A stretch of 64,000 nt of DNA from Antedon mediterranea (Eukaryota; Animalia; Echinodermata), in the NCBI RefSeq assembly GCF_964355755.1, contig NC_092676.1:30003499-30067498 (forward strand), read 5' to 3'. Positions 2,561 through 64,000 of the stretch are shown piece by piece. The position numbers and the translations under genes are program-made. The stretch's first letter is position 1. Each line of letters starts with the position of its first letter. The notes beneath the pieces were generated by a model. The model made no database searches, was not told the DNA's origin, and saw only the letters and a list, made by a program, of their open reading frames with translations.

Positions 2561-2623
2561 TTCTGTATTAAAATTAATACGCATTGATCAGAATTTTGTC
2601 TAGAAGCTTCTAATCAAGTAGCA

Positions 2624-41405: not shown

Positions 41406-44400
41406 ATGGGAATAGATGCAGCAATTGCAGTGTTTTTTGCTGGATTCATAACATTAACAATAATAAATACAGTCGTATATCCGTCATCTGTTAATGGTAG
41501 GTATTTATTATGGTTGTAATTTTTGTTTACTTGATCAAATAATCTTTCTTTTTTATTTCAGAATCAAATATAACATTCCATTTAAACAATTTAAAACCAT
41601 TACTTATTACACATTTTATTTATATGACAGCCCTCAATAATAAAAAAATACTGAAATCAAAGAAGTGTAGCTTCCAAATTATCACTGTCAGTCTAGGGCA
41701 GTAATTTAATTTCATTCTCTCTGGCACAAGGAGACACAAATCTGTTTGGAGCTCCTTTCGTTGGTACAGGTACATGACAACAGAATATTATAACAATTAA
41801 CAGACAAATTAGTTTTATGCTTCAATCTTTGTACCCAAACTGTTGTCTTTTCAGAAACAACTAAAGATTTAAAACAAGAAACTAGCTTTAAAAGTAGACA
41901 TTTATTGAGTGTTGAAGAAGATTGGGTTGAAGAAACTCCTATTCCTCAGGTAATAGTGACTGACTTACTTTTTAATAACAATCTTACAGCACATGGACTG
42001 TTTTACACAGTCAACTGATCAGTGGAAAGCAAACTGTGAGTGATAACATTTGCAATGGATTTTTTGACAGAGGTGAAATCTTGTCTTGTGTATTATACCA
42101 CGTCCATACTTCTATGATATCACATACCTGGTCACAAATTTGTTTCTTTTCTTTGTCCATGTTAAGTTGACTTATGAAATATCAGGTGATACTTATCCAG
42201 AGGCGGTGGATGGTGGTAGTATACTTGAGTACACATGCTTACTTGTCTACAAAGTGGAACCAGAACATACTGCAATCAATATCTCATTTGAGGTAATGTT
42301 TTTTCATTTATAAGACTTAATTTTTGTTTGCAATTTTTTTATACATAAAAGTACACTAAACTTCATTAAACGATCCAAATCTGTAACTACAGATTTTTTT
42401 CTGGTCAATTTGTTTATTAGGGTTTTTTTTTACACTTGTTTTAAACAGTGCATAGAGATATGTATTTTGCACTATACATTTAAAACCATTAACTATCCAT
42501 GGCACTTTTAGTTGAGCTGTAATTTGGTGGTTGGCAATGCTTTCCTTCCAATCCTAAGGTCCAGGGTTCAAATCCTGACCATCACCATATCACTCATTCC
42601 AAGTTTTATCAACTCATGACTCTTTGAAAAAGAAAGAGATACAGATGAGACTGGCTACAGTATAATGTTATCAGTAATGTAATGCTGTCTTGTAAATGTG
42701 AATTATGAGCATATTTACTGTTAATATTCTTATAGCAATTTTCTTAAATGCTGGTGTACTTGAGATCTACGTTTATACCATGCTATACACTTTATTTTAA
42801 TTATTGATATATACAACATTGAGAATAAGAGACTTATTTATTAAAATATTTAATATAATAATAATCAATATTGTTTCAGGTTGATCTACCATTCAGTTCA
42901 TTTCATGAGGATTCTTTCAATGTCACACTTTATAGTGAAGCTCTAGGTATTTTACCCCACCAGACTATTGATGAAAATGTAGATGATGAAAAGTCCAAAG
43001 CTGCTGTGAAGATTCTTCACTTGTTTCACGATCCCATTGTACAAAAGGTAGTACAGTACTATATTTAATTTTGTATGATTTATTTACTATTTATAAATGC
43101 CAATTAGTCTTACATTCATCTGAATTATAAATTAAACTAAGCCAGGACCTTGTCATTTTTATCATTGATCAAGGGCTTCTCTCGTCCAGACAAAAGACAT
43201 AAGCCAATACGTTTGGGGTAGGTACTAGTTGCACAGGGCTGCCATAAGAGTCGGCAGTGCTGTGTTTCAAATGCCTGATGGAAACCAAGCGTACATTTTT
43301 GCAACAACATATTATTTTTAGAATGAATTACTAAAATAAAATCCTTGTTTTGTTTAACTCAGGTATATGTGAAAGTGGATATATCAGAATCAATGTGGGT
43401 TAACTTAACTGAGCCATGGAAGCGGCCAGATTGCTGGTGGGTGCCTGCCTTTCCAGACTGCTATCAAACTCTATATTCCGGTAAATAATAATAATAATAT
43501 GTAGCAATTGGCAATTTAGAAGATACTTGATACTTTCTTGATGTTGATGGATGTTGATGCATGTTGATGGTTAACAAGCTAAACAGCTTATATGACCCTT
43601 CCTTTTCTTTCTTCTTTTACACTATGCTATAATTAATGTATAGATGTTTGAGAGATACGGGTATGAACAATGTTTGTATTAAAAAGATAACTGTAAGTAA
43701 TGAAAATATTTGAGTTTAGGTGTTAAAGAGGATGTGCTAATAAGTGCGAAAGAGTAAACTTGCAGTCAAGAGATGTTCTAACTCATTGGTCTTTTCTTAA
43801 AGATTTATATACTCATTTTGACCACCATCCACATTTATATATACTTAATGATTTATAAAGAAATGTAAGTATTATTTGTGGAAAATTAATAAACAACAAA
43901 TTATTTTCAAACTATAAAACAATTAAATTGATTAAATTGAGTTTTATTTCCTCAGAATGTGTGTTCTATGATAAATCTCCAGAACAAACGTGGGACCCAG
44001 CTTATTGCTATCAGTTTAAAGTATCGGACTGTCTTCCATTTAACACTACCACTGAATGTTACTACATCAATACAACATCATGTCTCATGGCCTTGATCGC
44101 AGATGCAGAGCGCCCTCAGGATATGCTATGTCCAACGGATGTCAACGAGACTGATTGTATCCAGATTAACGATCGCGGATTGTTCTTTACTCAGTATGAC
44201 TTCAGTGTTCCAACTGTTGCTCCAATCCCTGAAACATACGAGAAAGATTTTTGTGGCATGTCTATGGAAAGCATTTGGAGTATGTAACATATTTCATAAT
44301 GAATTTGGATTTTTGGATACTCTCTAATCATTAATTGATATGTTTGCAGTATATTTTTTAAATTTTTTTTATTACATATGCATTCAACAACAGCCAGCAC

Positions 44401-47400
44401 AAACTCTCCAATTACAGGATGGATAAACTATTACGAATTATCATGCTTATAAACTAAGTCTCATTTGAAGCTTAAGCTTGGTTCCCACTAGAACGTAACG
44501 CAAGGACGTAAACGCAACGCAATCGTTTTAACCAATGACAAGCGAAGTTATAGACAGTTAGCAATCACAAGCGAATAAGCCATCGCTTGTGATTGGTCAA
44601 TTCACTTGCGTTGCATTACGTCCTTGTGTTGCGTCGCTAGTGGGAAGGAACCACGCTTCAGGGAGTGGAGTTGAAAAAGGTGTGAGTTAGCTACAGCTCC
44701 ACTATTTGGCAGAATATTTTAAATAAAATTCAATGTGGTGTTTTTAAGCTTTACATTTACTGTCCATTGTTATGATCTTTTAACATTTCTACCTTAATTA
44801 TAATTTTTTCAATTTAGTGACAGAGGAAACAGCATATGAGCGGCAGTATACATACGACAGTACGATCGAGGAAGATGAAAACGGTTGTGTGCGTGTACTC
44901 ATGCGTATCAAACCAATTATTACAACACCGCCACCAACGTACAATCCATACAAAGCTTTACGTAAGACAGAAAAGTACATAAATGCGAAGACTTGTATGA
45001 ATGCAAACACTACAGGATTCTACACACAACCTATTCAGCCAATTAATTGGAAAGATTTCAATATTACAATTTTGTTCACTGGTAGGCACATTTATTCTGC
45101 AATATATAAATATTTACCAATTATTTACATTGTTACAGGGATCTTACAGAGAAAAGTAATTTTCTGTAGTCGCAAGACCCTTTGAAAAAATCGTATTATC
45201 TTAACTTGAGAAAAAAGTGTCTGTTTGACATGAATATAAATAATAAAATCAAATTATTTGCATTTTTTGTTTACAAATATCATAATTGATCTTGTTTTAA
45301 CTTTAAATTTGTAGGTGAAATTTTCAACTATGTTGAAGTAAATCAAGTTTTAGTTTCAGAAGTTTATGTAAACATAACACAAAGTACTAAACTCATTAAC
45401 CAAATAAGACGTGTATTTGGTAAGTAAAGTTTTTAAACTTCTTTATCTCTTCTTTAATAAATAAGTTCAGTTTTAGGATAGAATTGTTTTGATATTTGAT
45501 TTTCCGTTAATTTGTTATCTTTCTATGAGACAGGCACCATTATTTCCACTTGTTTTGTGAATGAAATAAAGTTAACTTATCTTAGAAATATAATTTCTTA
45601 ATGTTTTTAAATTTTTAGCCATTCAAAAAATACCAATAAAAAGACCAGGTTACTGGGTATACAACAATCCAACATTTTCCGATCGTAATTTCACCCTGAA
45701 ACATGAACAAATACTTCACCACGGTGTTTTGATCCACCCCGAAGCGTTCAACCGCGGTTTCACCATGACGATTGATGTTCCAAAGGTTGATGATGTATAC
45801 TTGGCCAAATTTGAAAACATCACACCATGGTGGAAGACGGGAAAACATTTTGCAGCGATATCAGATTACCATATGTTTAATTCAACCTATAATACAAATG
45901 GCGACGAATTAACTTTGGAAACTGTAATAGATAAGATGGAAGGTTATTATGATGGGGATAGCAGATTGCCAGATATCACTTCTGAATGGGTTGTCGAACA
46001 AAATGATTACGGAGAAGAAATAATTGTTCAGTGTATATTTTCCGTCACACCATTTCTCAATATTAAAGATGTTGTTTGGCGCGACCACGGAAGATTAAAT
46101 TTTTATTTGTATTCTCGAGTTCTTTCATCAGTGGTGGCTGATAATGAGCTTAAATTTTCTATCACAGCCGATTTTAAGTTCCCACCAGGAGATGAACTAA
46201 TTCTGTATGCGTCTAGGACGAGCACCGTGACTGTTCAACCGTTTGTGCCACGTATTCCGCCAGTCAATGCCACTCAGGAACCAGACTGTCAAGATGACAT
46301 CACATATACTTTTGAATTATTCAACATTCTGGAATTTTCTATCAAGGATATCTGGATGAACGTGACTTGTCCCGATTTAGTTATCATACCGTCGACGCTT
46401 GAAGTTGAAATTATTCACCATGTTAATGTCACAAGTGATAGCAACGCTGATATCATGCTTACTACAGATCAAACATATCACATACATTACACAGAGTTGG
46501 CTCCTCAAGTACTTGCAAGAGGGCAGCAGACATTTCGACTGGTCAACAACGGTATTGCGCCGCATTACTCCATTGTTTGCAAAGTTTATCTTTCATTTCG
46601 CAAGGATAATAAGGCGTTAGTCCTTCCATATTTGGCAGGTGTCAGTAATGAACTGTTTACACCTGGCATTGAGTATATTTTATATGGGCGTGATTTAATT
46701 GAGAAGGAGGAGGAAGTTATGATATTGACAACACCAATGAGTAGGACTACTGTGTTGTTAGGAAATGCCACAGCTGAAATTCCTATTATGGTGGATGAAG
46801 AAGTAAGTTATGGCGTGGAAGAAGAGACAACACCTCTAATGTACTCGATGCCTGTTGGGTCAAATGCAACATTCATTATAAATATAACAGTACCAGAAAT
46901 AACCACAGAGGTCAGTGGTAAATAGTAGTAGTACTGTAAGATCTATTTTCCAATGATGCACATGTCTAAAAAGCTCTGTCAAATCAAATTAGTTTGTGTG
47001 CCCAAATATGCTAGTGATATGCTTAAATATGGTAGTGATATGCCCAAATATGCTAGTGATATGCTTAAATATGGTAGTGATCAGATTGCATTAACATTTA
47101 TTTGGAACAGTCCTAGAAAAAAGGTAAAAAACAAGCATATATTTACAATAAGTTAAATGAGTTACATCATAATATCCATATATGGACACATCTCATTTTT
47201 CTTGTCAAACTGGTTTGATAGTGTAGACAGAGCTCAATTGTTAAAATGTACTTTTTAAATGTTGATCTTGATTTTATTTTGTGTATATTAATTATACAGT
47301 AGTAGTTTTTAATTATGCAAAAATGTGTCATTATTCCTTCTATTCAATAAGATTTCATCTTTTTTTAGATTGAAATTTATTTTGGTATGCCAGCAGCAGT

Positions 47401-50400
47401 GTTAGCTGTCTATTATTCCAGAATCATATTTATTGGTGGAAATATAATAAACCTGGATATGGTTGATCTTGAGAAAGGAAGCGATATCATGGGTAAGAAT
47501 GGACACAGTGCTTGACTGTTAGGAGCAGAACAGTCCTTCAGGCCACCCATATTAAAAGGACACCCCTATTAAAGGGACACATGTTCCCACATTGCTGCAG
47601 GTCTTTCTGAATTACTGTATATGAGCCTCCCCCACATGATTATTTCATTGTATTTATCCTGTATGTTATTATATTGTGGTAATAAAATTAAATTGAAATA
47701 TTGATTGGTAAAAATCACAGAAGCCTGATGTTAAACTATAATTAGAACCCTGAAAATTGAACCCCATTTATTTTGTATTATTTGAATGTATTTCTTTAAA
47801 GAATCATGGGACATGACTACCAGAACAAACTTAAAACAGAAACTGGGAAACTTAACCAATATTGCAGATAATTTAAGAAACGAAAGTGGTAAGTTTCCTT
47901 AATATTCTTAATACAGCTACATCATATCATGTTATGATGCTTGGCTACCAATCCAAGGGTCCTGGGTTTAAGTCATATATGTTAGGATTTTTTCTAATGA
48001 CAAATTACAACTCCACTCCCAAAGACTTGTAATAAGACTTATGTCTATACTTAGATTAGTATATTCTTTATTTTCTCATAGATAACATTGTTCTTGAGTT
48101 TAATGTTGTACTCCTGGATGAAAAAGAAACAGTTGTAAAAGATACAGAACATGAGTTTAAGACAACTGTGATTTACACAAATGGACAAGACTTAGTACAG
48201 CAACAGAGTGTAGCAGTATTAGAACCTGACATCCAAGTGTATTTGAGAGTAGCCAATGAAAGCACAAATGCAGATCCAGGTAATGTACTGACATTACTAA
48301 TATGTACTCACTTTTCCAGCTCACATACATGTTAGCATTCTATCATTACTAATAAGTACTCACTTTTCCAGCTCACATACATGTTAGCATTCTATCATTA
48401 CTAATACGTACTCACTTTTCCAGCTCACATACATGTTAGCATTCTATCATTACTAATACGTACTCACTTTTCCAGCTCACATACATGTTAGCATTCTATC
48501 ATTACTAATAAGTACTCACTTTTCCAGCTCACATACATGTTAGCATTCTATCATTACTAATACGTACTCACTTTTCCAGCTCACATACATGTTAGCATTC
48601 TATCATTACTAATACGTACTCACTTTTCCAGCTCACATACATGTTAGCATTCTATCATTACTAATACGTACTCACTTTTCCAGCTCACATACATGTTAGC
48701 ATTCTATCATTACTAATACGTACTCACTTTTCCAGCTCACATACATGTTAGCATTCTATCATTACTAATAAGTACTCACTTTTCCAGCTCACATACATGT
48801 TAGCATTCTCTGCATGTTGTCATAAACAAACACTTGAATATTCAAGAGTTTTAGGTGAACAAAATTATTATTAGTGAAATATTTCAATTTTTAAAATGTT
48901 CTGTTTTGTTTATTACTGATAATTGTTAATAAATAAAAAAAATATGTTTTAAATGCTGTATCAAATCTGTAACTTTTTATATAGGTTTAAGTTGGCTTGT
49001 GAGCCATAGACCTTTCTTGTTCAAACATCATTATTGAGCACCTTTAAGTCACTCTACTCAAAACTCACATTTTCTGATGTTTTTGGCTGCTCCAGGAGCA
49101 ATGACTGGAATGGATTGATTGATGGAAAAAAATAAGTGAATGAAAATGATTTTGACTTTTTTGTACTAGGTGAAATCTTCCAGTATTATATAAAAGTAAA
49201 TCACACGTCAGTATCGCAGTCACCAGCCCACCACATAAATGTTACCATCCATCTACCATATATGATCATAAACAAACACTTTCTGCCTTATGAATATTCA
49301 AGAGTTCCAGTCAGAGGTAAAAAATTTGAACCAGGCTTTGAATATGAAAATGATGAGATTTTGCTACTGTACCTCTATAAACTAGATTTGGATGAAGTCA
49401 TCGAAGGAACATTTCTTGTGCAGATAACAACGAAACTTATGGAAGGTAAACTTAAAATTTGTGAATATGTTATGAAAAAAAGAGAAAAAAAAGAGATATT
49501 AAACTTTTTAAATTGTATGATGTCAATCATGACGTAATTTTGTACTTTATACTAAGTAAGTATGGGGGAATCAAGCCCATCCTCTACCTCTATACCACCA
49601 AGCCTGCCCTGATGGCTAGGGGTTAGATTTTCGAATCAAAGTATAAGCAGCGTTTTGTTTAAACTGTCTACACTATCAAACCAGTTTTACAAAAAAAGTG
49701 TAATGTGCCCAAATATGGTAGTGATGTGACACCACCATGTCCATATATGTACATTTTTTTGTCACATTTTGCAGGTATTTGTTTACAAGCTCAAGTTAAA
49801 TACGAAATGTCTAGTTTCTACCAGTGGGGGCGGTACTACCCTTACACAACAGTAAGTGAAAATGTCCTCAACATTCGCAATGCAACTCTTAAATTTATTG
49901 GAACTTCTCTTCACGATACTCCTGACAAATTGGTTGCCATCCATGAGCAAGTTACATACAGAATTACCATACCTCTGCCTCCAATATCCAGCAACCTAAC
50001 CATAGAGATATTCCTACCTACACGAAATGTAACACGAAAGATCTGGGAAGTCTTACAAATACAAGAGGAGATTCCAGAGGTCCTGCCAATCGAAGAAACT
50101 TTTTTTGATAATGGCTGCTATACTGTGATGAGACCATGCTTTTGTTATGGAGCTGGAAATATGTCTTTCGATGCCAGCTGGTTTATTTCGCGATTTACTT
50201 GTAAATTGAAAACTGACCAGATGTGTACCAACTCGACAGATTTGGACACCGGAGAAAGCAACATAACAAATTGTGATTACTCACCAGATGTGTACAGCAA
50301 ATGTCGAAATTTATCTAAAGAGATGTGTTTCCAAAATGAAAATGTGACCACTTATCTACAAACTCCAATATCACACTTTCAACAGATGGCTTGTAATATG

Positions 50401-53400
50401 TCAAACAGTACTATGAATAACAACGGTACAGCATTTAACCATTCATCCTCCTTTCCCTGGAATTGCACAGTTCATCGAACAGAGGCAGACTTATGTCACG
50501 AGTTCTCCACCAGTTTCTGTGAAAATGCACTATTTACTGAGTGCAGTTATTCTGGGGTTCCTCATCATCACAACGAAAGTGAGAGTATGAATGTTACAAA
50601 ACTTCATCTTGACGATTATATCGGCAACTGGAGTTGTGCTTGTTTAAAAGAAACTGAAGAAGGTAATCTAATTTTGTTTCATTTAGATTTAAACCCAGGG
50701 GCACAGAGCATGAGCAATATAATGTAACTACCCAGTAAGGCCTCTTAGGAGTGCTAAACCAGGGGCCTTAATTGCCCCATGTTTTAAGCCACTGTTATTA
50801 GTAATCTGATATTGATGATGATTCATGGTATATTAATTCACTCAACAATTAAAATCATACACGACTGACAATCATTATGTAATAATTATTTCCAATCAAT
50901 TCTTAATCTTGAAGTAGTCATGTCTCGGGACTATTCTATAGCCACCACGGATAGACTTTCTTCATCACATGCTTCTATGAATGGATGACTTTTGGGTGCA
51001 GGAACTCTAGTCAATCAAACTCAGTACCATTTTGATTTCATGATCATTAAAAAAATTTCCTCATCTAATTATTTCTAATAAATTCTTAATCTAGAGATTC
51101 AAGATGTAAAAGATCCATTTGAAGGTTTAAATTTAACAGCCATATTGGAAGGACACTACAACGCATCCAAGAAGCCATATCAGGTTTGCTCCTCATTACT
51201 TGCCAACAAATCGTTGCTAGCAAAACCCATCAAGCCTTCTGATGAACAACCTTACCAGAATCTATCGTCATCAGATCATCAGAATCTAACAGAAGATGAA
51301 GGATTTTATCCGATTCCAGATTTCTGCTTTGAAGAAACTATTATTGAGCTAGGAATGGCAAAGGTTGTTAATACTTCAATTGTAACAACAAGAGAGGGAG
51401 TTATTTGCACTTTTACAGGTGGAAATAATCACAATCCTCACCAACCAGGTGAGAATAAGTCTGTTAACTTAATTCAAACCACTTTATATTAAGTTCTGTG
51501 GAATACTAAATGCATACCTTAAATGTGTTTCTATGTAATACCCATAACTAAGCACCTGAATGTCTAGGTACTCCTCATGAAACCGCCTGTAGTGCATTAT
51601 AACGTTCAAGTTATATTACAACCTTTGACTATTTCTACCTAAAATTTTTATAGCTGCTTTTTCTTGAATTTTTCGTTAAAATATAAATCTTTTATATTTG
51701 TAGGTGTTAAATATAAGGCTATGAACCTACCAGGCTTTGGGTTAGGAGGCGATTCGGTATCAGTATATGTTACCATGGTGATATCTGACGAGGTAGAGAA
51801 TGTCCGAGATGAGACTCTGTTTATCAATGCTTCATCTACTTTCATGTACTTGAACATACCAATACCGCCACCATTGAGGTACGAAGAAAACTGCACATGC
51901 TCAAAGCCGCTTACACACTATTTTGACGTTGACTACCCACTTGACTGTGGATGTGAGTCGATGTATCTCGTAGGTCATAAACGCGACCTTTGTAACTGTA
52001 CAACAACATTTCACGAAATCGAAGAGTCATATTTTAGTGCGCCCTCATGTGATTGCGTTAATTTCTGCGAGAATAATGTACAATACTTCTTCAATCAACC
52101 AATGGTTAAGAACCTGGCAGACTTTGATAATGCAACATGTGATTGTGGATCGTATAAGGACTTTTCAAATTCACAGAATAACTTTGATTATTTATCAGAA
52201 TGTCGAGAGATGTATTTTAGAAATTACACTTGTCAAAATGTCAATCATACTGTTAAGAAAACTGTGGAGGAATGTCGGAATATTACAAGCAAGAACTGCT
52301 TAGAGGTCAATGAACTACAAGATATAAATGTTGCCTGGTTGTGTCAATGCTCATCTGACGGTCTAAACTGTTCCTGTGAATTTGACAGTTTTCCGTTGTC
52401 ACCAAACTTTGCAAATTACTCCATTGTTGAATGCCAGAATATGCCATGGGTTAAAACCAATGACGGTTATAACGGTGACATTTCATTGTGTGATTGTCAC
52501 ATTACAAATGGGTCTCCTGCAAAATCTTGTCACTGTTCTGGAGTTTGTTCAATACATATTACAAATTCATGTACTGCATACAATCACACATTTTGTGAAG
52601 ATGTCACACATTTAAGAGAATATCTCGTTAATGATGGACTCTGTATTTGTGAAAAATTCTATGGGTCAAATCATACCATTCAAGACGCTTTAAGATTATA
52701 TAAATACCATAATAATACCAAAATAATTTTGAAAAATCAAACCATGAACGGCATTGAAGATAGTCAGTTTAAAAATGGAACGTTTTTAAATGTCACAATG
52801 TCAAATTCCACAGCTACTAATGCCAATGAAACCACTCAAGTTTTGTATAAAGATCAATTGAGCTTGGATGACTTTGTCTTGTACTGTAATTGTTCAGATG
52901 TAGATATAATCATTCCAGATATCAAACCAGTACAATGTAAAGAGATCGCACCAAAAGAAGTCTTTGTCTGCCAGTGCTTCGTGCCGGCAGATAACGAAAC
53001 TCAACTAATTTTAGACAATTGGGATTATAACTTGACAATTGTTGACGAAGCTGTAACTTACCTTGGCGACGAGTTTGTTGTTATTGAACCCGAGTTAGAG
53101 ATATCATTTGTACGTATTGAACCGAATCCGGTTGATATCGTTGATAGTTTAGACTTTGTGAAGTTTGGATATAAGATCCAGCACACTGATTCATCCAATT
53201 CACCAGCGTACAACTTGACCCTATTCCTTGATGCTGTTAACTTTACCATTACAAACGGCAGCGGTAAAGTCTTACCGACTGATATTTTATCCAGCCGTTC
53301 CTGCTCCGATGAAACTCTTTGCGAAATCTCTTACGATAATGAGGTCGGACATTTCCATTTAGGATTTCTTCCAGTAGATGTAGACGGTGCTTCCTTTGAA

Positions 53401-56400
53401 GGCACGTTCTCTTTAGCTCTCCGAGATGATGTTGATTTCGTTGCCAACAGTATCATCAGCGGAACAGGAATCCTATGGTATGATAGCTGTGTTGTAGACT
53501 TTCCTGGTCGTCTGTATGGTCCAATCAATTCCTCAGACATCTGCCATATCTATGCACCAAACATCACTGCCAAACTAGAATTCACCACTGCGTATGCATA
53601 TATGTATCAAAATGAAGAGTATGGCATACCAAACACTTTCTCCATTGGTGACTATGTTGACATTCGTGCACATCTGTGGGTTCCTGAAATCACGTTAAAT
53701 GTTGCTAATTACAGCATCAGTGGAGATAACATGTTCTCTTTCACACCAGTGATGGCGGTGATGTTGTTGACGGACAGGATCTACGTAAGAAATGACACTG
53801 CCACATTCTTTCTAGATCAGCGTCACAATCCGCATGATAATGAATTCCACATTCTCTATCCTGATGAACAGTATGACACAGCGGAATTCACAGACAAGGG
53901 AATTGCGTTTATACCAGGTAAACAGATTATGAGTTTAATTTTAGAGTATATTAAGCTCTTTCTGCACACTATCAAACTATTTTGACAAAGAAAAGTGTGA
54001 TGTGCCCAAATAATATGCCCTAATAATATGGTAGTGGTGTGACATCAGACTTTGTTTCCTTGTACTAGTCCCATATCCCTTTATAACGTTACACCATATA
54101 ACTCTTTTAAACATTTATGACTGTTTTTGTTTTAGGTGTTCTAGTAAACCAAGCAGATAATATAGCATCACCTGAAGATTATCTCCTGTTAAAGTTCATA
54201 TTTACTTTAAAAGATGACCCACTCTGGAAACAAGATGACATCATACCCTTCACAGTATCTGTTGTATACTACAGTGATTATGACGGACAACTTTTGACAT
54301 TGATTGACAAGAATGTTGAATTAAAGGTCGTTGAACCCAGACTGACACTTAGAGTTGAGGTAAAGTCTAATGTGCAGTTAAAAATGCTACTGAAGTTCAT
54401 TATATACTGTGCCATCATCAAAAACATTCACCTACCTTTTTTGTGTTTTAAAATTTAAAAAAAAAAAAAAATACAGTGGCTTAAAAGCTATAAGCAATCA
54501 CTATGGCTAAACCCAGAAACCCTAAAGGTTAAGTGCTCCCAGAGTATGAGCAGCCCAATGTAACTACCCAGCGTTTGGGGTCTTCTCCATGGCTGTTCTT
54601 AATCTTTACTATTTGACTTTCAGATTCTTGATTATAAGTGGCAGGTTGAACAAGTACAGAACACAACAGGTTACACTTGTGTAGAGAACACTTGTTGTGA
54701 AGATGGTGAGCCTTGTGATACAGGCCGTGTGTGTGTTACAGACTCTTCTGATATGGACAATTGTGAGACTCACAGGTACTCCTGCACCACATACTCCTAA
54801 TACAATAATTTGTCTAAAGCTCTCTCTACACTATCAAACTTTATGTGACAAAAAATATATGGACACATTTGATGTCATATCACTACCATATTTGTGCACA
54901 TCACACTTTTTTTATCAAACTAGTTAGATAGTGTACATAGAGTTAAAATGTATTCTGCAAATATGTCTTGTTTAACCCTTTTGCATAAAAATGTATATCT
55001 GCTGTTTAAAAAAATATCAACACTATTCCATTCCAGGTGTTTATGCTATTCTGGATTTGCATTGAATGCTGAATCCACCTGTACTGCTGTGGGACGTACT
55101 GCTGGTGATATACTCGTGTTTGGACTGACTGTATTTCACAGCCAAGAATATACTGGTTAGTAGGCCTAAATAGTGAATTGAATAGATTGCAAACGAATTC
55201 AGTTGATTTTAAATAAATATTTTCATTTCAGGTAATGCATTTGATCTTTACATAACGTTATACAGTGACCTCAAGTCTGACCTTCTACCAGATACTGACA
55301 CAATGGGTCACATCCCTACAGATGGTTACCTTGGTAATGTAAGGAAACCACGATTAACACAAATAAGTGACCACGAATTTCAACTTTATGTTCATCGTTT
55401 TGATCATGTAGTGAGCTGCGAACGTTTTACAGTGCCATTCAGGATTAAGCCTTCTTTACATGTGTTTGCAGGGCAAACTTGGGAAGTGGAGGTAAGATTT
55501 TTGGCACCAGTCTACCTATCTAAGCTTGTGCTTATTTACCAGCCTACTAGATCTCTTAGATCAGGTGGCTAATGTCTGCTAGTAGACTAGTACATCTACT
55601 ATGGTGGACAAGCTTTTGGTAGCAGCTCCAATGTGGAATTCCTTACCAATTTAAATCAGACAGTGTGCTACTTTAAACTTTTAGACCCAGTTGAAGTCTT
55701 TCTTTTTCAAGTTATTGCCATCTATTTTAATTTATGTACAGCGCATTGAGAGCTTGCTATATGCGCTACAATATATAAGAATGAACTATTATTTATAATA
55801 AGTTGTCTAGATTGTGAGGACCAACATTTACATGTAATGAAATATTCTTTTTTTTGTAGGCAACAATGAATTACCGTTCTTCTAAGCCGTATGACACGCC
55901 ATTCAACATTAAATCACGACTGTATGACATGAAAGACATGAATGATACAATCCGATTCCCATTATTCGCTCCAGCCCCAAGTGTTCGCTTCAAAATGTTA
56001 CCATCAAGTGGTCAATCTAGCCCAATAAATTTTGAAGTTTTCTCTTCTTCTATGGCTCAAAATGAAGTCATGGTGAATGTACGAGAAGAAGATAAAATTG
56101 TGTTTCAGGCCGAAGTTGTTATACCAAAGATTAAGTGCAGTATGACTTTTAAATTAAATCTACCAGAAGGTAAAAGATTACTTGATTACTTCTTAAGTCT
56201 GGAACCATAATCCATATTTAAGACTACATTGATACATTAAGTATAATAAAGAAAATCAAATCAGTTCATTGAGTTCTTCATTTTTATCCATTTCTTAGGG
56301 AGTGGCATTACACTGGAAAATGTTACCATGGTTTCCATGGGTACTGCAATAGATTTTCCGGAAACTAATTTTGGTGAACCACAAGTGACAGAAAGCATTG

Positions 56401-59400
56401 ATGGACAAAAGTTCTTTTTTGCCTATTTTCCTGATATACACAGTAAAGCAAACACATTGAATACTCCACGGGTAATGTTATTTTAATTTTTTTTTAAATA
56501 TTTCTTTTCAAAATTTTCATTTTCAAAATATATATGTACTGTATATTCGGCAATAAGTGTTGACAAATTTTACCCTTTTCTGTACTATATGCTGTAGTTT
56601 TTTTCCGAAAAATATGTTAAAAGTTGTTAATTTATATACTGATATCAAATATTACAAAACAAAAATTTGTGTTTTTAAGTCTTTAGATTCCACCAAGCAG
56701 CAAATGTTCAAGTCAATGAACGGAGAACAGCAGCCGTACCCAACAAACCCAGAATGCAATGCTCTCAATTCCAGTTTATACGAGCAGACAATTCTTCTAG
56801 GGTGTTACCATAATAAAATGTCTTACTTTGGCGGTTTTATAACAGACATGCACCCATCTTTACCTTTCTACAATCTATCTCAAGTGATGACAAGGCAGTT
56901 GTGTTTGGATCATTGCAGGTAATGATTCTCATAGACTATATTTCCAACTTCTTCATTGTCATACTATCAACAATTGATTATTGATTGACAGAACTATGAG
57001 GCCCACTAGCTAGCCTACTGTAAAGTAGTGGCTGCGTGTGTGACAGTGGCTGAACTAGTACACCGGGGTAACCTCCTACTCGTCTTGAAAAATGTACTGG
57101 GTTCTTTAAAGTGCACATGAGTTAGATGTGTACACTGGACCTATGGTTTATAGTTCCTTATCCGAGAAGACTCTACTCTACCACCAGAACCATGGAGCGA
57201 GTGAGCCTCGAATGTGTTTTAATCTCTCTGCCAGGTCACTCGCTCAACATACATACATGCTATCAAGAATCTACCAATAAAACTCCTTTTTCAATCAATA
57301 AAATCAATCAATCAATGTCTTGATGAACTTTCAAATCAGTAATAGTGTGTATTTATACTTCCTAGTGATAGAAGATATGATTATGCAGGCCTGCTGAAGG
57401 GTGCTATCTGTTTGTGTGGGACTGAAGAGCAATTCATGCAATACTATCAAAATAGAACATTTGAATTGAATGGCACTTTACATCATGCAACCCTTGATCA
57501 TTGTAGTACACTCTGTACAGGTACATAAAGCTCTGTCTACACTACAACCCTTGATCATTGTAGTACACTCTGTACAGGTACATAAAGCTCTGTCTACACT
57601 ACAACCCTTGATCATTGTAGTACACTCTGTACAGGTACATACAGCTCTGTCTACACTACAAACTAGTTTGATGCAACCCTTGATCATTGTAGTACACTCT
57701 GTACAGGTACATAAATCTCTGTCTACACTACAACCCTTGATCATTGTAGTACACTCTGTACAGGTACATAAAGCTCTGTCTACACTACAACCCTTGATCA
57801 TTGTAGTACACTCTGTACAGGTACATACAGCTCTGTCTACACTACAAACTAGTTTGATGCAACCCTTGATCATTGTAGTACACTCTGTACAGGTACATAA
57901 AGCTCTGTCTACACTACAAACTAGTTTGATGCAACCCTTGATCATTGTAGTACACTCTGTACAGGTACATAAAGCTCTGTCTACACTACAAACTAGTTTG
58001 ATGCAACCCTTGATCATTGTAGTACACTCTGTACAGGTACATAAAGCTCTGTCTACACTACAACCCTTGATCATTGTAGTACACTCTGTACAGGTACATA
58101 AAGCTCTGTCTACACTACAACCCTTGATCATTGTAGTACACTCTGTACAGGTACATACAGCTCTGTCTACACTACAAACTAGTTTGATGCAACCCTTGAT
58201 CATTGTAGTACACTCTGTACAGGTACATAAAGCTCTGTCTACACTACAAACTAGTTTGATGCAACCCTTGATCATTGTAGTACACTCTGTACAGGTACAT
58301 AAAGCTCTGCCTACACTACAAACTAGTTTGATGCAACCCTTGATCATTGTAGTACACTCTGTACAGGTACATAAAGCTCTGTCTACACTACAAACTAGTT
58401 TGATGCAACCCTTGATCATTGTAGTACACTCTGTACAGGTACATAAAGCTCTGTCTACACTACAAACTAGTTTGATGTGTCTACTGTATATATGAGCACA
58501 TTGCATTTTTGTGTCATAAAAAGTTTAGTGTAGACAGAGCTTTAGACCAGGGAGTTGTAAAATTATTTTACAACTCCCTGTTTAGAAATACTTAGTTTTA
58601 TATGTTAATTTGACCAGGGAGTTGTAAAATTTTACCACTCCCTGATTTGACATCCTAGATTTTTTTCATGTTATATATTTCAAAGTAAAAGTTTCTCTCT
58701 TTATTATTATTTTTTTTAAATTTCTTTTTTATAGTTCTATTATCAATTTATAATATTTTAGAGGACATAAATATTGATTGTTTTATTGAATTTCGTTCTT
58801 TTTTTAAAATGTATGTATCACTATGATACATTCTGTTTGGATTATCTTTTTACGTAACCAATTACATTGTGAATGTGTGTGTCTTTTAGGTGAAAATGCC
58901 TCTTGTGGGTCGATGGAATTTGCTTTACTGTATGGTCCAATACCTGGATCTGTTCCTAAACAACAATGTGACTGGTATTCAGGATTGTATGATGAAACTG
59001 AGGTATAGCAATTGTCTAATCTGTAAATTTGATTATATCATTATAACATAATATAACATTGATAACAGCACAGGTATTTAATTATATTAATATTCGATAA
59101 ATTTAATTTTTAGGATGTGTTTGTGGTAGAATTCAGTTTATCAATTCATTCATTGGCTACTAAGGGTATAGAGGAATACCTACACTTACAAGTAACATAC
59201 GATCATGGAGAAAACAAAACAAGCACACTTCTACCGTTAGCCCCCTATAAAATAGAGGTATGCACATTTATACTTTCACTGAGGACGATCGAAGCATATT
59301 GATAGAATTTAACTTTTCAGAACTGCATACGTGGTGTACTGCATACGTGGTGTACTGCATACGTGGTGTACTGCATACGTGGTGTACTGCATACGTGGTG

Positions 59401-62400
59401 TACTGCATACGTGGTGTACTGCATACGTGGTGTACTGCAAACGTGGTGTACTACATACGTGGTGTACTGCATACGTGGTGTACTGCATACGTGGTGTACT
59501 GCAAACGTGATATTACATTTATATATATCTTGGTATCTTTATTTATATACACATAATAAAATGCATTTTTTGCATTTTTTACAATAAAATTACAACAATA
59601 TTAAAATGACATAAAAAACTTAAAATTTATGTATTTATACTGTCTTTGATAGTGAAATTGTTTATGTTGATAGATCTGATTAGACTTGAACTTGAACTAC
59701 ATTCATAATAAAATGTCTTTATTTGTAGACTGGAATAGTTAAACTTTTGATGAATGTTTATGTATCTCCAAAAATGAGTGGCTATGTTCCAGGGTATGTT
59801 ATTTTACATTATTAATACAAACATTTATAATGTGTTCTGCCTTCAATATACTGGAGGTATACAACAACATTAAAAAACACTTCTATTTTAAAGTACTATT
59901 TATTTTATAAAACAAAAACAAAAATTCCATTTTTTATTTTATTTTGAGACAAGTTTTTTACTTCGTAACCAATGATGGCATTCCTTTCTCTTATTTAGCT
60001 TTTCTTGTTTTTGTATTGTATTACTGTTTCTTATTGTTTATTATTCTTGTATTATTTGTCTTACCATTATAGAATATAATATATATATATAGTTTAAAAT
60101 TTTACCAAATAATATATTTTAATTTTTTCAGCGATTATTTAGAATATTATACAGAGGTTCGTCATGCTGCTCATTCAACCGTGACTGCGAGGGATGTTTA
60201 CATTTTGTGGATGTTGCCTAGTTACATAGAGTATGTAAATGTAACCAATCACCCATCACTACCATTTACATATAGACACATTGAAGATGTTGAGAATGTT
60301 GAAACTGACCCTAGAGTTGGAATCAAGTTTTATGTAAGTGTAATAAAATTGAAAATAGAGCATGAATACAAATTTATGTGTTACAAGAATGTATTTTGTA
60401 CTGTATATATTTGTACTGTCTTTCTTTTCTATTGGACAAAGTTGCAGTAACTATAATATACTATGCCTTAATAATACTACACTTATCTACTTTTGTTACT
60501 GAGAAGTTAGTTATCTTAAAAATGTTTCAATTAACTGTACCTTATTTTAATAAACTGCACAATTTGTCAATAAACTGTACAATTTTTCAATTAACTGTAC
60601 AATTTTTCAATTAACTGTACAATTTTTCAATTAACTGTACAATGTTTCAATTAACTTACCTTCTTTTAATAAACTGCACAATTTGTCAATAAACTGTACA
60701 ATTTTATAATTCACACTACAATTTTTCAATTAACTGTACAATTTTTCAATTAACTGTACAATTTTTCAATTAACTGTACAATTTTGAAATTTTTTGAAAA
60801 TTTAAAAATGTTTAAGTAACTGTACACTTTTTCAATTAACTGTACAATGTTTCAATTTTAACTGTGTTGTATATTCCTCTTCAGTTAAAATTAATCTAAT
60901 TTGTTTTTGTGACAGGTGAAAACCTTATTCCATGATGACGTGATAGGCTTTCACTTTATGGTGAGACTGGACCCACTTCACACCCTTCCACAGGGAGAGT
61001 ACCATTTGATGTCAATGACACAGGTGTATTATGACTCTTGGGGGATACACAACCATTTTGAGGAAGACTACACGTTTGATGTTGTACCCCATGCTCATCC
61101 TGTTGTACCTATTAAAATTACATTTGAAGGTAAATTCATTCCATGTCTTTAAGTTGAAAGGGAGCTTGTTTAGATAAGTTAACATTTGCTGTTGGAACAA
61201 TCAATAATGTGTTATTTTGGTTCTATTATAGTTCCATCTAAGTATTCAGGACGTGAACAATTGGATGGTGAGAAAGATTTTTTTATAAATTTCTTGTTTG
61301 TTATAGGATATTACATATATACAGTTTTCTTGTTGAATATATTTTTTTTTTTTTTTTTACAGATATTAAATTATCAACCTATAATGTTCTGTATGATGAG
61401 ATTAACAACATTGTGTATGCTTGTTTCTTCAACAATACCATTAATGTGTAAGTTGATCTATATTAATTGAAATGTAATCTAATTCAGAAATTTAATGTGC
61501 TATACTACTTTGCTTTAATACAATAATACAGTTATACTTATGCTATAGTATAATAATACAGTTATGCTATAGTATAATAATACAGCTATGCTATAGTATA
61601 ATAATACAGTTATGCTATAGTATAATAATACAGTTAAGCTATAGTATAATAATACAGTTATGCTATAGTATAATAATACAGTTATGCTATAGTATAATAA
61701 TAAAGCTATGCTATAGTATAATAATACAGTTATGCTATAGTATAATAATACAGCTATGCTATAGTATAATAATACAGTTATGCTATAGTATAATAATACA
61801 GCTATGCTATAGTATAATAATACAGTTATGCTATAGTATAATAATACAGCTATGCTATAGTATAATAATACAGTTATGCTATAGTATAATAATACAGTTA
61901 AGCTATAGTATAATAATACAGCTATGCTATAGTATAATAATACAGTTATGCTATAGTATAATAATACAGCTATGCTATAGTATAATAATACAGCTATGCT
62001 ATAGTATAATAATACAGCTATGCTATAGTATAATAATACAGTTATGCTATAGTATAATAATACAGTTATGCTATAGTATAATAATACAGTTATGCTATAG
62101 TATAATAATACAGTTATGCTATAGTATAATAATACAGTTATGCTATAGTATAATAATACAGTTATGCTATAGTATAATAATACAGCTATGCTATAGTATA
62201 ATAATACAGCTATGCTATAGTATAATAATACAGCTATGCTATAGTATAATAATACAGTTATGCTATAGTATAATAATACAGCTATGCTATAGTATAATAA
62301 TACAGTTATGCTATATTACTGCTAAAGCTATGCTAAAAAACTTATAGTTTTTTTTTTCAGTTATAAAGGTGGTTGTTTCATGACTGGAGATCTTCCATCC

Positions 62401-64000
62401 TATCTCACAGAGACACCTCACACATGTGAAGATTACTGTAACTGCACTTACTTAGAAAATCATCTGACTTTTGATAACTGTTCGAATTACGAACCACGAC
62501 CTTCTAACTGCACTTGTGGTTGCGTACCAGATTGTATTGAAGATATGATGTCTTGTGAAATAGACTGCTTAAATAATACATTCAGTAACGCTGATTTAAG
62601 CTCATGCTTAGCTGGTTGTAAGCGTGTTCAGGTAAACTGCACACAAGGATGCTGTATAGACACATGTGACAAAGATTTAGACTTGTGTCTGCTGAATAAC
62701 TGTGTTGAGTGCAATTATTTTGCAAACTGTTCTGTTGAGTTGAAATGTGCAGAACAGTGTATTTCAAAGAATGACGGCTGCAGTCAGACCTGCATTAGAT
62801 CACCAGTAACATGCCACGAGAACTGTTCGAGTGCATCATGGGATTGTTTATTAAATTGTAACCAACTTTGTGGAGAATCTACAAATACCAACTGCAAGGA
62901 GTATTGCTATTCAGACTGCCTAGCTGATGAAAACCGATGTCTTAGCGATTGCTGTTACACAGATTGCAATGTGAATGCAACTCTTTGTACTCAACAGTGT
63001 TCCACTGATTGTAGGCTTGATGGTAACTGCATTATATCATGTTTATCTAACTGTAATTCAACTGGATTTACTTGCAATGAAACATGCGCTGCTCAAGTTT
63101 ATGATTGTCAAGATAACTGTAACCAGAATTGTTCAGTAACCAGTTGTACAGTTATTATAGAAACGGATTGTGCTGAGGAAGAGGTCAATGACCTTGTGGA
63201 GAACATCTTAACAAACTATAGTTTAACAAATCTACATAATAATGGAATTATTGGTCTTGAAAAAGCTTCTTTGATGTTGACATCTGTAAATTGTTCCGGA
63301 AACTCTTGCACAACAGAGTTCCAGGTGACAAATACAAGCAGTAGTTGTTCTGCCACAGCTACAGAATACTGCCAAACAGATCTGGATTCATCTTGTGCTA
63401 TCAACTGCGTTGGTCTTTGTGAAGCAACGTCATCATGTATTGGGGAATATCTTAATTGTTTGGACACGTGTGGCAGTGACCCCACTGGGACTTGTGATGT
63501 AGTCTTATTAAGAAACGTTTCAATCGATTTCTGTTTAATTGATGCATTGAATTGTATTCTGATGATGAGTAACTGTTATTTAAGTTGTAATTCATCAGAA
63601 TCGTGTTTAAAATGTGATGACGTGTACTGTGCCAGTAATTACACCCAGTGCGTGGAAATAGTTACCATGGACAACAGAACATATTCAGCAGACAATGTCT
63701 TACATCAGACTTTAAATTTAACTGATGGTAATTCATGCTTGTCTGAATGTAATCGCAACTTAACCAAGTGTCAGCAAGTTTGCAGACAACATAATAACGT
63801 ATCATATATCTGTCATTCTACCTGTTTAAGAGGGCATTATGGCTGTGCGTCACAATGCTTGACGTACATCAACGAACAATCTATCTGTGGTATTGCTGAT
63901 TCTACTACAAATACCAATGAAACAAACTTAATACATAACAGTGAATGCAACAGACAATGTGAAGATGACTTAGTTATCTGTAAGCAGTTATTCTCGCACA
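41406..64000 (+). CDS. Giant multi-exon gene (≥33 coding exons, ≥10.9 kb CDS, ≥3,600 aa within the window; 3' end beyond the window): secreted/extracellular, heavily N-glycosylated, Cys-rich protein with EGF-like and WSC-like modules and a C-terminal CxxxC-repeat region; family not recognised
   Basis: Exons (all GT/AG, phases chain consistently end to end): 41406-41496 (ATG, signal peptide MGIDAAIAVFFAGFITLTIINTVVYPSSVN), 41731-41769, 41855-41949, 42167-42292, 42880-43047, 43363-43480, 43956-44279, 44818-45081, 45315-45419, 45619-46910, 47369-47492, 47802-47888, 48082-48279, 49170-49445, 49775-50662, 51095-51448, 51704-53917, 54136-54359, 54624-54775, 55037-55155, 55232-55491, 55860-56169, 56299-56471, 56680-56918, 57372-57520, 58890-59002, 59114-59257, 59729-59793, 60132-60333, 60916-61129, 61232-61267, 61363-61447, 62361-64000+. 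WSC-like signature LCLDHCR|RYDYAGLLKGAICLCG across exons 24/25. EGF-like CLCYSGFALNAESTC in exon 20. Confidence 0.75.
42495..42600. repeat. Possible tRNA-derived SINE fragment (box-B-like GGTTCAAATCC); related segment at 47925-47990
   Basis: …ggttggcaatgctttccttccaatcctaaggtccagggttcaaatcctgacc… vs …gcttggctaccaatccaagggtcctgggtttaagtc…. Confidence 0.3.
44472..44655. mobile_element. MITE family B copy in giant-gene intron 7, near-identical to 25806-25990
   Basis: cttaagcttggttcccactagaacgtaacgcaaggacgtaaacgcaacgcaa…cttgcgttgcattacgtccttgtgttgcgtcgctagtgggaa. Confidence 0.7.
45619..46910 (+). CDS. Giant gene exon 10 (1292 nt)
   Basis: Acceptor atttttag|CC, donor ACAGAG|GTCAGT. Open frame …IQKIPIKRPGYWVYNNPTFSDRNFTLKHEQ…ITVPEITTE with many NxS/T sequons. 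Confidence 0.75.
46969..47234. mobile_element. MITE family A copy with an internal duplication (gcccaaatatgctagtgatatgcttaaatatggtagtgatat x2) in giant-gene intron 10
   Basis: aaagctctgtcaaatcaaattagtttg…ggtttgatagtgtagacagagct. Confidence 0.7.
48285..48815. repeat. ~58-bp tandem repeat x9 beginning at the donor of giant-gene exon 13; every unit contains an acceptor-like ttttccag
   Basis: Unit actcacttttccagctcacatacatgttagcattctatcattactaataNgt. The first unit overlaps the intron's own 5' end (gtaatgtactgacattactaatatgtactcacttttccag). Confidence 0.9.
49661..49774. mobile_element. MITE family A, 3'-truncated copy ending exactly at the acceptor AG of giant-gene exon 15
   Basis: aaactgtctacactatcaaaccag…gtgcccaaatatggtagtgatgtgac…ccatatatgtacatttttttgtcacattttgcag| ; the right TIR is missing. 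Confidence 0.6.
49775..50662 (+). CDS. Giant gene exon 15 (888 nt); its acceptor abuts a truncated MITE
   Basis: Acceptor …gtcacattttgcag|GT, where the preceding 110 bp are a MITE-A copy; donor GAAGAAG|GTAATC. Encodes …AGICLQAQVKYEMSSFYQWGRYYPYTT…CLKETEE. Confidence 0.75.
51704..53917 (+). CDS. Giant gene exon 17 (2214 nt, 738 codons): extremely Cys- and N-glycosylation-site-rich extracellular segment
   Basis: Acceptor ttatatttgtag|GT, donor CCAG|GTAAAC. Contains ~28 N-x-S/T sequons and dense Cys spacing (…EENCTCSKPLTHYFDVDYPLDCGCESMYLVGHKRDLCNCTT…CQCSSDGLNCSCEF…SLCDCHITNGSPAKSCHCSGVCS…). Confidence 0.8.
53953..54050. mobile_element. MITE family A partial copy 36 bp downstream of the exon-17 donor
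   Basis: aagctctttctgcacactatcaaactattttgac…gtgcccaaataatatg…atggtagtggtgtgacatcagac. Confidence 0.55.
54826..54944. mobile_element. MITE family A copy in giant-gene intron 19
   Basis: aaagctctctctacactatcaaactttatgtgac…tagttagatagtgtacatagag. Confidence 0.7.
57489..58495. repeat. 52/66-bp tandem array (~18 units), each unit = last 32 nt of giant-gene exon 25 + GT donor + MITE-A terminal sequence
   Basis: aacccttgatcattgtagtacactctgtacag|gtacataaagctctgtctacactaca(aactagtttgatgc). The first unit is the genuine exon end (57489-57520) plus donor. The array ends in a MITE-A fragment at 58497-58548. Confidence 0.9.
59322..59508. repeat. 16-bp microsatellite-like tandem repeat x~12 (CTGCATACGTGGTGTA) in giant-gene intron 27
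   Basis: Direct reading. Confidence 0.9.
60527..60865. repeat. ~30-bp degenerate tandem repeats (caattaactgtacaattttt / caataaactgcacaatttgt) in giant-gene intron 29
   Basis: Direct reading. Confidence 0.8.
61518..62330. repeat. 30-bp minisatellite x~27 (TATAGTATAATAATACAGYTATGC) filling giant-gene intron 32
   Basis: Direct reading; C/T alternation at one position. Confidence 0.95.
62361..64000 (+). CDS. Giant gene exon 33 (open to window end, ≥1640 nt): CxxxC-repeat cysteine-rich region (~15% Cys)
   Basis: Acceptor cttatagtttttttttcag|T. Frame open for ~546 codons to the window edge. Absent from the ORF track because no stop falls inside the window. E.g. …CLADENRCLSDCCYTDCNVNATLCTQQCSTDCRLDGNCIISCLSNCNSTGFTCNETC…. 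Confidence 0.8.

Follow-up and report, generated by a model that had tools for sequence, protein, structure and literature searches.

A giant, probably secreted ambulacrarian protein with a core related to bacterial and protist stalk domains

A 64,000-nucleotide stretch of AT-rich eukaryotic DNA from the crinoid echinoderm Antedon mediterranea (contig NC_092676.1, positions 30,003,499 to 30,067,498; hereafter the window) carries on its plus strand a gene that begins with an ATG at position 41406 and is still open at the window edge at 64000. There are 32 exons in one frame, with 3,619 codons in the window, and the question raised by this locus is what kind of protein they encode. A preliminary description, made from the DNA alone, could not place the product in any family and proposed a candidate lineage-specific giant surface glycoprotein. 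We find that the core of the protein can be placed after all. It is very probably built from two-domain units, called A-B units here, that are homologous to the stalk units of bacterial DUF11 (CLIPPER) adhesins and to Gram-positive pilins. As an explanation of the whole, we favour, with some reserve, a secreted giant acidic N-glycosylated ambulacrarian stalk or coat protein. The corrected full-length product is predicted to comprise about 4,084 amino acids, which are the 3,619 residues in the window plus 465 beyond it. Residue numbers given below use an exon-4 donor at 43050; with the better donor at 43047 they drop by one.

Stalk-like units in the protein core

The evidence for this placement begins with a profile of residues 55-1185, built from five orthologs and scored against 1.84 billion representative sequences, which matched 264 proteins. 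All non-ortholog matches fall at profile positions ~720-1060 and occur in up to 14 repeats per protein, with a period of about 300 residues. The named eukaryotic matches are from Monosiga brevicollis, Salpingoeca rosetta, Thecamonas trahens, Fabomonas tropica and Balamuthia mandrillaris. Others include a Roseomonas fluvialis protein annotated as an isopeptide-forming domain-containing fimbrial protein / DUF11, a planctomycete SdrD-like protein and metagenomic proteins labelled "TIGR01451 family". The Pfam domains found on the matched proteins are DUF11, GramPos_pilinBB and bMG10.

Each repeat is composed of two domains. Domain A spans about 140-170 residues and belongs to no named family, with weak bMG10 and SpaA-like signals. 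Domain B is positive for DUF11, TIGR01451 and TIGR04226 in bacteria. In the columns aligned with Antedon, for example, the B domain of Roseomonas reaches 34.1 bits with DUF11 (cut-off 24.6), 40.3 bits with TIGR01451 and 42.8 bits with TIGR04226. The motifs of the repeat match the Antedon sequence column by column: TVPEITTE, LGNLTNIADN..SDNIVLEFNVVLLD, VLEP, ADPGEIFQYYIKVNH and WGRYY. When a hidden Markov model (HMM) of the unit was built from bacterial and protist sequences only, it matched the Antedon protein with an E value of 5.5e-64, compared with 0.28 for the best of 100 shuffles. Five regions are recognized by the unit HMM (844-1173, 1961-2130, 2229-2316, 2387-2597 and 2825-3003). In profile-profile comparison with hhalign, two A domains (844-981 and 2152-2310) and three B domains (984-1172, 1968-2132 and 2390-2502) are recovered at probabilities of 94-99%; the two best B domains reach 95-99% and the third about 94%.

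A structure predicted for residues 836-1135 from an 11-row alignment that includes the Thecamonas repeats shows two beta-sandwiches (predicted local distance difference test, pLDDT, 74.6; predicted template modelling score 0.61). By this model and by fold comparison, the unit has the CnaA-like Ig-type beta-sandwich fold, and its sequence profile reaches the SpaA pilin with an E value of 7.8e-4. The Foldseek comparison also ranks integrin alpha legs and the C-terminal domains of AgI/II highly, with low template modelling scores (TM-scores), and we treat this likeness as a generic resemblance among tandem beta-sandwiches. As in stalk proteins, the arrangement is a tandem one in a long protein with a signal peptide, with five A and/or B regions over 4,084 amino acids.

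Thus, at least four or five A-B units, each a pair of beta-sandwich domains, are predicted to form the backbone of the protein, and weaker ortholog matches suggest that more units lie in the first 840 residues. By the same profile evidence, the giant membrane-anchored proteins of choanoflagellates, apusomonads, ancyromonads and Amoebozoa are also homologs of these units.

DUF11 was renamed CLIPPER after a Lys-Asp-Asn isopeptide bond was shown in the crystallised domain PDB 9IFR, and the triad is found in many but not all members of the family (PMC12617251, Protein Sci 2025). The same 2025 survey of isopeptide domains regarded eukaryotic CLIPPER hits as likely false positives or microbial contamination, and left open whether eukaryotic members exist (PMC12617251). 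To take a census of the triad, all B domains were aligned to one model. Asp and Asn are present in 26 of 26 bacterial B units, and Lys in 12 of the 26. The complete Lys-Asp-Asn (K-D-N) triad is present in none of the 25 choanoflagellate units and in none of the 19 aligned ambulacrarian B-type segments, some of which are partial. In these two groups small or aliphatic residues occupy the Asp and Asn positions; in the ambulacrarian domains Asp is replaced by Ile, Leu, Trp or Ser, and Asn by Ala, Ser, Gly or Val. Judged by this alignment, animal and choanoflagellate B domains have lost the triad that bacteria keep, such that the fold appears to have been retained and the cross-link chemistry not.

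Secretion, cysteines and other domains

The N-terminal segment is the only hydrophobic stretch in all five orthologs. In Antedon this segment is MGIDAAIAVFFAGFITLTIINTVVYP, and the first 112 residues of the protein align Met-to-Met with the ortholog from Anneissia japonica at 55% identity, which bears out the signal peptide noted earlier. Neither a transmembrane segment nor a glycosylphosphatidylinositol (GPI)-type tail was found in the three complete C-termini (Antedon, Anneissia and Acanthaster), and these finish in a conserved ...GTW.CC motif. Because the full-length orthologs lack such segments, the protein is most likely secreted, and its earlier description as a surface protein is doubtful. 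There are 125 N-glycosylation sequons and 215 cysteines in the protein, and it is acidic, with 537 Asp+Glu versus 265 Lys+Arg. Together with the signal peptide, the abundant sequons support the heavily N-glycosylated extracellular product that had been proposed. The exon said to carry about 28 sequons carries exactly 28 (51704-53917, exon 16 of the present model).

The layout of the full-length protein is as follows.

N-terminus: signal peptide
Following segment: B-like start
About 175-310: conserved cysteine block, CWW...CIQINDRG
Following region: probable degenerate units
844-1140: intact A-B unit
Next: A start, broken up by a pair of inserts rich in cysteines and sequons (about 1205-1480 and 1565-1940)
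1968-2132: B domain
2152-2310: A domain
2325-2385: cysteine knot
2390-2597: B domain
WSC-bearing region, with the WSC domain at 2695-2793
2825-3003: weaker A/B unit
3073 to about 3690, and again about 3800-3960: C-x3-C-x6 tail, with three furin-type sites between its parts
C-terminus: Asp-box domain

Among curated families, only WSC (PF01822) is recognized with confidence. The domain is encoded by spliced exons 23-25 (residues 2695-2793) and scores 35.2 bits against a gathering threshold of 27.8 over model positions 2-81 of 82, with eight cysteines counted, so the WSC-like signature reported earlier is a WSC match by the Pfam standard. The EGF-like modules fared differently. The cysteine pattern C-x-C-x2-G-F-x7-C is indeed in the sequence, but it does not establish an EGF domain, as Pfam EGF-type scores are all below threshold (EB module, E value 0.51; cEGF, 17 versus 26.6 bits in the Anneissia ortholog). 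The HMM search that the preliminary description had called for thus returns WSC above threshold, and EGF and PKD/REJ not. Pfam gave no match on the whole proteins of 3,801 and 4,133 amino acids at E values up to 0.1, and only WSC on eight segments at E values up to 1. A PDB sequence search with the N-terminal profile returned nothing.

The last exon in the window, described earlier as about 15% cysteine in CxxxC spacing and open at the edge, has 14.8% cysteine and is indeed open. It contains 32 CxxxC pairs, compared with 11.5 +/- 2.9 (maximum 22) in 1,000 shuffles. The cysteine tail has no Pfam family match. Three furin-type R-x-K/R-R sites (RRRRR, RKRR and RIRR; residues 3694-3774) are present near the C-terminus only, and the position of the first is conserved between crinoids and Acanthaster. 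The C-terminal ~120 residues, beyond the window, contain one conserved Asp-box and give a weak match to a GH74 blade (E value 0.015, PDB search). This region is too short for a whole BNR propeller made of S-x-D-x-G-x-x-W blades, as in sialidases, sortilin and GH74.

Several known families were considered and set aside. Thioester proteins (alpha-2-macroglobulin/TEP/C3) were rejected on their defining features, which are a CGEQ motif and an MG series with TED. Polycystin-1/PKDREJ is not supported, as there is no REJ, GPS or PLAT match in Pfam and no hydrophobic segment beyond the signal peptide. Only WSC is common to KREMEN, with no kringle, CUB or membrane helix, and membership among ZP egg-coat proteins finds no ZP match. 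The earlier guesses of a polycystin/REJ-like, KREMEN-like or egg-coat protein therefore fall away, PKD being absent as well.

Gene structure, orthologs and surroundings

The gene model was made with a self-trained exon-chaining gene finder starting from the ATG at 41406 and was then refined with orthologous proteins. Its splice boundaries are GT-AG throughout. Exon chaining alone recovered both the 2,214-nucleotide exon at 51704-53917 and the 36-nucleotide exon at 61232-61267, the size extremes reported previously. The first automatic model, with 37 exons, included false small exons and wrong splice sites that were corrected by ortholog alignments. The pieces discarded on these alignments are 41731-41769, 44641-44679, bits of 20 and 22 nucleotides near 55.5 kilobases (kb) and a split of exon 29. 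The preliminary description had a product of more than 3,600 amino acids, which agrees with the 3,619 in the window, and 33 exons, which does not agree with the 32 found here; the extra small exon could not be located.

The NCBI protein P0002, "uncharacterized protein [Antedon mediterranea]" (3,801 amino acids), was found with the whole spliced protein as query and is the gene's own product. The window edge corresponds to its residue 3336 of 3801, and 465 residues follow. In the following list the NCBI model refers to P0002.

41406..64000, plus strand: whole gene in the window, residues 1-3619; P0002 maps exactly to exons
41406..41496, plus: exon 1, start codon and signal peptide MGIDAAIAVFFAGFITLTIINTVVYP; absent from the NCBI model; Met-to-Met with Anneissia P0003
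41855..41949, plus: exon 2; absent from the NCBI model
42167..42292, plus: exon 3, start of the mature protein, B-domain-like segment
42880..43047, plus: exon 4; donor 43047 as in the NCBI model, in-frame alternative 43050
43363..43480, plus: exon 5, conserved CWW cysteine block begins
43956..44279, plus: exon 6, conserved cysteine block, 77% identity to Anneissia
44818..45081, plus: exon 7
45315..45419, plus: exon 8
45619..46910, plus: exon 9, 1,292 nucleotides; NCBI intron 46716-46826, across which Anneissia aligns
47369..47492, plus: exon 10, encodes a portion of the A domain in the best-preserved unit; skipped by NCBI, conserved in Anneissia, Asterias and Ptychodera
47802..47888, plus: exon 11, A domain, ADN motif; skipped by the NCBI model
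48082..48279, plus: exon 12, A domain end, VLEP linker
49170..49445, plus: exon 13, B domain, DUF11/CLIPPER-like
49775..50662, plus: exon 14, B end, next A start, first cysteine- and sequon-rich insert
51095..51448, plus: exon 15; acceptor uncertain (51095, 51104 or 51113, all in frame)
51704..53917, plus: exon 16, 2,214 nucleotides, cysteine-rich insert, then B domain and A start; 28 sequons, 38 Cys
54136..54359, plus: exon 17, A domain end, ADN motif, VVEP linker
54624..54775, plus: exon 18, first part of the cysteine knot with EGF-type pattern
55037..55155, plus: exon 19, cysteine knot end, B domain start
55232..55491, plus: exon 20, B domain
55860..56169, plus: exon 21, B domain end
56299..56471, plus: exon 22
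56680..56918, plus: exon 23, WSC domain, first part
57366..57520, plus: exon 24, WSC domain, middle, YDYAGLLKGAICLCG
58890..59002, plus: exon 25, WSC domain end
59114..59257, plus: exon 26, weaker A/B-like unit begins
59729..59793, plus: exon 27
60132..60333, plus: exon 28
60916..61129, plus: exon 29
61232..61267, plus: exon 30, 36 nucleotides, the smallest
61363..61447, plus: exon 31
62361..64000, plus: exon 32, CxxxC-rich tail, 14.8% Cys, dominant spacing C-x3-C-x6; open at the window edge

There are two orthologs with complete C-termini, from Anneissia japonica (P0003; 4,133 amino acids, 61% identity) and Acanthaster planci (5,175 amino acids), and two partial orthologs, from Asterias rubens (2,528 amino acids) and the hemichordate Ptychodera flava (2,433 amino acids). 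The Anneissia protein gives co-linear tblastn matches over 42161-63999, and an independent echinoderm-like metagenome contig in ENA gives co-linear matches to the middle exons at 35-70% identity. These co-linear matches indicate that the exons belong to one conserved gene. The single gene with a continuous frame and GT/AG exons described earlier is thus upheld by both the independent gene finder and the orthologs, and from these alignments we conclude that the gene is real and conserved across echinoderms and one hemichordate. As its orthologs extend beyond crinoids to asteroids and a hemichordate, the gene is not lineage-specific in a narrow sense, contrary to what had been suggested. A word-indexed search with the single 2,214-nucleotide exon found one metagenomic open reading frame only and missed both the identical P0002 and the orthologs. 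The whole-protein query found what the exon query had missed, and therefore negatives of single-exon word-indexed searches are weak evidence.

P0002 differs from the corrected model in several places. It begins at another first exon (42055) and lacks the signal-peptide exons (41406-41949), and it skips the exons at 47369-47492 and 47802-47888 that the orthologs keep. It splices out coding sequence that the orthologs retain, namely 46716-46826 in exon 9 and 50425-51273 in exons 14/15, and it carries an 18-residue insert, VHSVQFDATLDHCSTLCT, that is stitched from minisatellite copies. For each of the regions missing from the NCBI model, the reading in the preliminary description is supported by orthologs. 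The deposited protein thus seems to be ~280 residues too short and to lack the signal peptide, and the public gene model appears to need correction.

From a start within exon 24, the minisatellite concerned extends over much of intron 24. It repeats the last ~36 nucleotides of exon 24 together with the GT donor, such that there are 15 copies of CTCTGTACAG|GTACATAA, where none is expected by chance. Read-through of the first exon-24 donor runs at once into TAA, and thus only the first copy gives an open frame. There are four further intronic minisatellites, several of which yield long spurious open frames on one or both strands. The region as a whole is unusually rich in such arrays.

57485-58477, plus strand: 57/72-nucleotide minisatellite, exon 24 and intron 24
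48292-48809: intronic minisatellite, 52 nucleotides x10
59322-59509: intronic minisatellite, 16 nucleotides x12
60521-60857: intronic minisatellite, 20 nucleotides x17
61538-62315: intronic minisatellite, 24 nucleotides x32
361-1117, 23914-24342 and 34229-35242: more long minisatellite arrays, with open frames on both strands

Upstream of the gene lie ordinary animal genes, among them two alpha-tubulins, of which the second (28082-30224) has clearly diverged from its partner. An acidic ENEP(V/L)A repeat comes after the transposase remnant listed below. Contamination is ruled out by the intron structure, the animal neighbours and the co-linear orthologs.

2588-3910, plus: sulfotransferase, single-exon open reading frame, 441 amino acids
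About 6975-12974, plus: GH65-family hydrolase gene, multi-exon
About 15000-18010, minus: cytochrome P450 gene
20851-23145 and 28082-30224, minus: alpha-tubulin genes in tandem (Tubulin_C 180.8 versus 148.2 bits)
39167-40406, plus: remnant of a pogo/Tc5-type transposase with HTH_psq and HTH_Tnp_Tc5 domains, ~1 kb ahead of the start codon

Origin and possible role

The closest known systems each resemble the ambulacrarian protein in part. In the bacterial and archaeal DUF11 adhesins (CLIPPER, PF01345/TIGR01451), such as Roseomonas fluvialis WP_244407810, the units are recognized by curated models, whereas the animal domains fall below the cut-offs. The ambulacrarian protein also lacks the triad and any sortase, OmpA or archaeosortase anchor; its units are broken by cysteine-rich N-glycosylated inserts and a WSC domain, and its gene has 32 exons. 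It is without the N-terminal adhesin head of the bacterial and protist giants (P0007, P0010, P0017 and P0009), which have the motif GY.PY(V/I)D(L/V)(I/V)LP in common. Compared with the Gram-positive sortase pilins (SpaA 3HR6/3HTL, BcpA 3KPT, RrgB 2X9W and CppA 5XCB), there is no pilin motif and there are no isopeptide residues, and the product is one giant chain, not a subunit polymer. No LP.TG sorting motif is found in any ortholog. Membership among the sortase pilins themselves was rejected, as this is a eukaryotic protein with no LPXTG and no cell-wall anchor.

The same A-B unit is found in Monosiga brevicollis XP_001747465, Salpingoeca rosetta XP_004988293, Thecamonas trahens XP_013761222 and AMSG_09866, Fabomonas and Balamuthia. 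These protist giants are uncharacterised type I membrane proteins that, like the ambulacrarian protein, are eukaryotic, have abundant sequons and lack the isopeptide triad. They have 9-14 uninterrupted units followed by a C-terminal transmembrane helix and a cytoplasmic tail, whereas the ambulacrarian units are fewer and interrupted, and in place of an anchor there are a cysteine tail, furin sites and an Asp-box domain. With the WSC proteins (polycystin-1, KREMEN1/2, WSCD1/2 and the fungal Wsc sensors) the protein has one canonical WSC domain of eight cysteines in common and nothing else, as REJ, PKD, GPS, PLAT, kringle, CUB, sulfotransferase and a membrane span are all lacking here. The integrin alpha legs (thigh, calf-1 and calf-2) reach TM-scores of 0.34-0.38 at 8-13% identity with no sequence link, and the ambulacrarian protein has no beta-propeller or transmembrane segment. 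A literature search on the ortholog LOC identifiers found nothing, and the ten best matches of a looser search on DUF11, choanoflagellates, Thecamonas, echinoderms and metazoans included no paper that mentions DUF11.

Cnidarian minicollagens and NOWA have CXXXC cysteine-rich domains, and minicollagen domains polymerise by disulfide exchange. By analogy, the ambulacrarian tail may be likened to them as part of a secreted structural protein with runs of cysteines spaced by three residues. However, the tail is mainly C-x3-C-x6 over about 900 residues and not a compact six-cysteine module, and there is no collagen triple helix.

The most likely reading of these features is that the chain of A-B units serves as a spacer that is long, stiff and resistant to proteases, as in adhesin stalks, wherein disulfide-rich inserts would replace isopeptide bonds as stabilisers. 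The WSC domain would bind glycans, the cysteine tail would form intermolecular disulfide cross-links, and furin-type convertases would cleave the C-terminal part during secretion. On this reading the protein would belong to a coat or matrix outside the cell, such as cuticle, glycocalyx, mucus or an egg coat, and would not be a receptor. We give this functional reading of spacer, disulfide cross-linking and coat or matrix an even chance.

Several observations weigh against the reading as a stalk or coat protein. The curated models miss the animal domains: Pfam finds nothing on the A-B unit at E values up to 1, and TIGR01451 reaches 13.1 bits, where 24 are required, at the corresponding position of the Antedon B domain. 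Family membership rests on transitive profile homology and on a medium-confidence model from an 11-row alignment. An AlphaFold2 model of the N-terminal 1,131 residues from a five-row alignment failed, with a pLDDT of 35, and model support for the fold is confined to residues 836-1135. With integrin alpha legs at the top in Foldseek, fold likeness alone is not specific. We infer the coat or matrix role, the furin processing and the disulfide polymerisation from sequence features. In addition, the protist relatives are membrane-anchored, and thus an unseen anchoring partner may exist.

These points do not make a true orphan, a lineage-specific giant glycoprotein whose only known relation is its WSC module, anything but very improbable. 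The blank Pfam results on whole proteins, with only WSC on segments, and the blank PDB search with the N-terminal profile are what such an orphan would give, but the profile links the protein to hundreds of DUF11 and pilin-type repeat proteins with clean shuffled controls, the fold comparison agrees, and the orthologs span two phyla. A WSC-containing membrane receptor of the polycystin-1/REJ or KREMEN type is hardly credible. The WSC domain is genuine and the very large sequence resembles an ectodomain, yet REJ, PKD, GPS, PLAT, kringle and CUB matches are all missing, and three full-length orthologs with a conserved C-terminus have no hydrophobic stretch after the signal peptide. The acidity of the chain (537 Asp+Glu versus 265 Lys+Arg), the signal peptide and the heavy glycosylation potential would also suit a matrix protein that binds calcium carbonate in the echinoderm stereom. 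We find this improbable, as there is no match to the C-type lectin spicule-matrix families or to other known biomineral domains, the acorn worm has an ortholog, and the acidic residues are distributed over the chain and do not cluster in Asp/Glu-rich tracts. Furthermore, no echinoid ortholog surfaced in the ortholog searches, despite the sea urchin skeleton being the best studied.

The remaining alternative concerns origin and not function. An ambulacrarian ancestor might have gained the A-B core through horizontal transfer from a bacterium or protist, and not by descent from the unicellular holozoan ancestor; we judge this unlikely, although less so than the preceding alternatives. Animal orthologs are ambulacrarian only in two word-indexed searches and one exhaustive profile search, of databases that hold few annotated animal genomes, and all 30 of 30 sampled distant matches are protist, bacterial or metagenomic, with none metazoan. 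The best single-unit scores do not separate the possible donors (Salpingoeca 52.5, metagenomic 49.0, Fabomonas 47.7, the bacterial-looking P0009 46.1 and Roseomonas 43.8 bits). Against transfer stand the 32 spliceosomal exons and the ordinary animal neighbours of the gene, and the B domains lack the K-D-N triad as choanoflagellate units do and bacterial units do not, with a TxPEVT-type motif also in common. The triad loss and the motif common to choanoflagellates, together with the intron-rich gene, therefore favour vertical descent with losses.

Taken furthest, the reading as a stalk protein would make this the first bona fide animal family of pilin/CLIPPER-type stalks, inherited from a unicellular ancestor common to animals and choanoflagellates, retained by Ambulacraria alone and lost elsewhere among animals. 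Its isopeptide staples would have been replaced by a new disulfide system, comprising the cysteine inserts and the ~900-residue C-x3-C-x6 tail, through which the protein is polymerised into an extracellular fibre or coat with covalent cross-links. We offer this version as tentative and rather doubtful in its entirety.

The gene is an intron-rich deuterostome gene amid tubulin, P450 and sulfotransferase genes, with a core that is probably homologous to adhesin stalks and has no cross-link residues. It may thus provide a concrete case of a prokaryote-style adhesin scaffold that is used and re-stabilised in an animal. Through it, a set of uncharacterised giant surface proteins in choanoflagellates and apusomonads would also gain an animal descendant, and the ambulacrarian extracellular proteome a large component that had not been annotated.

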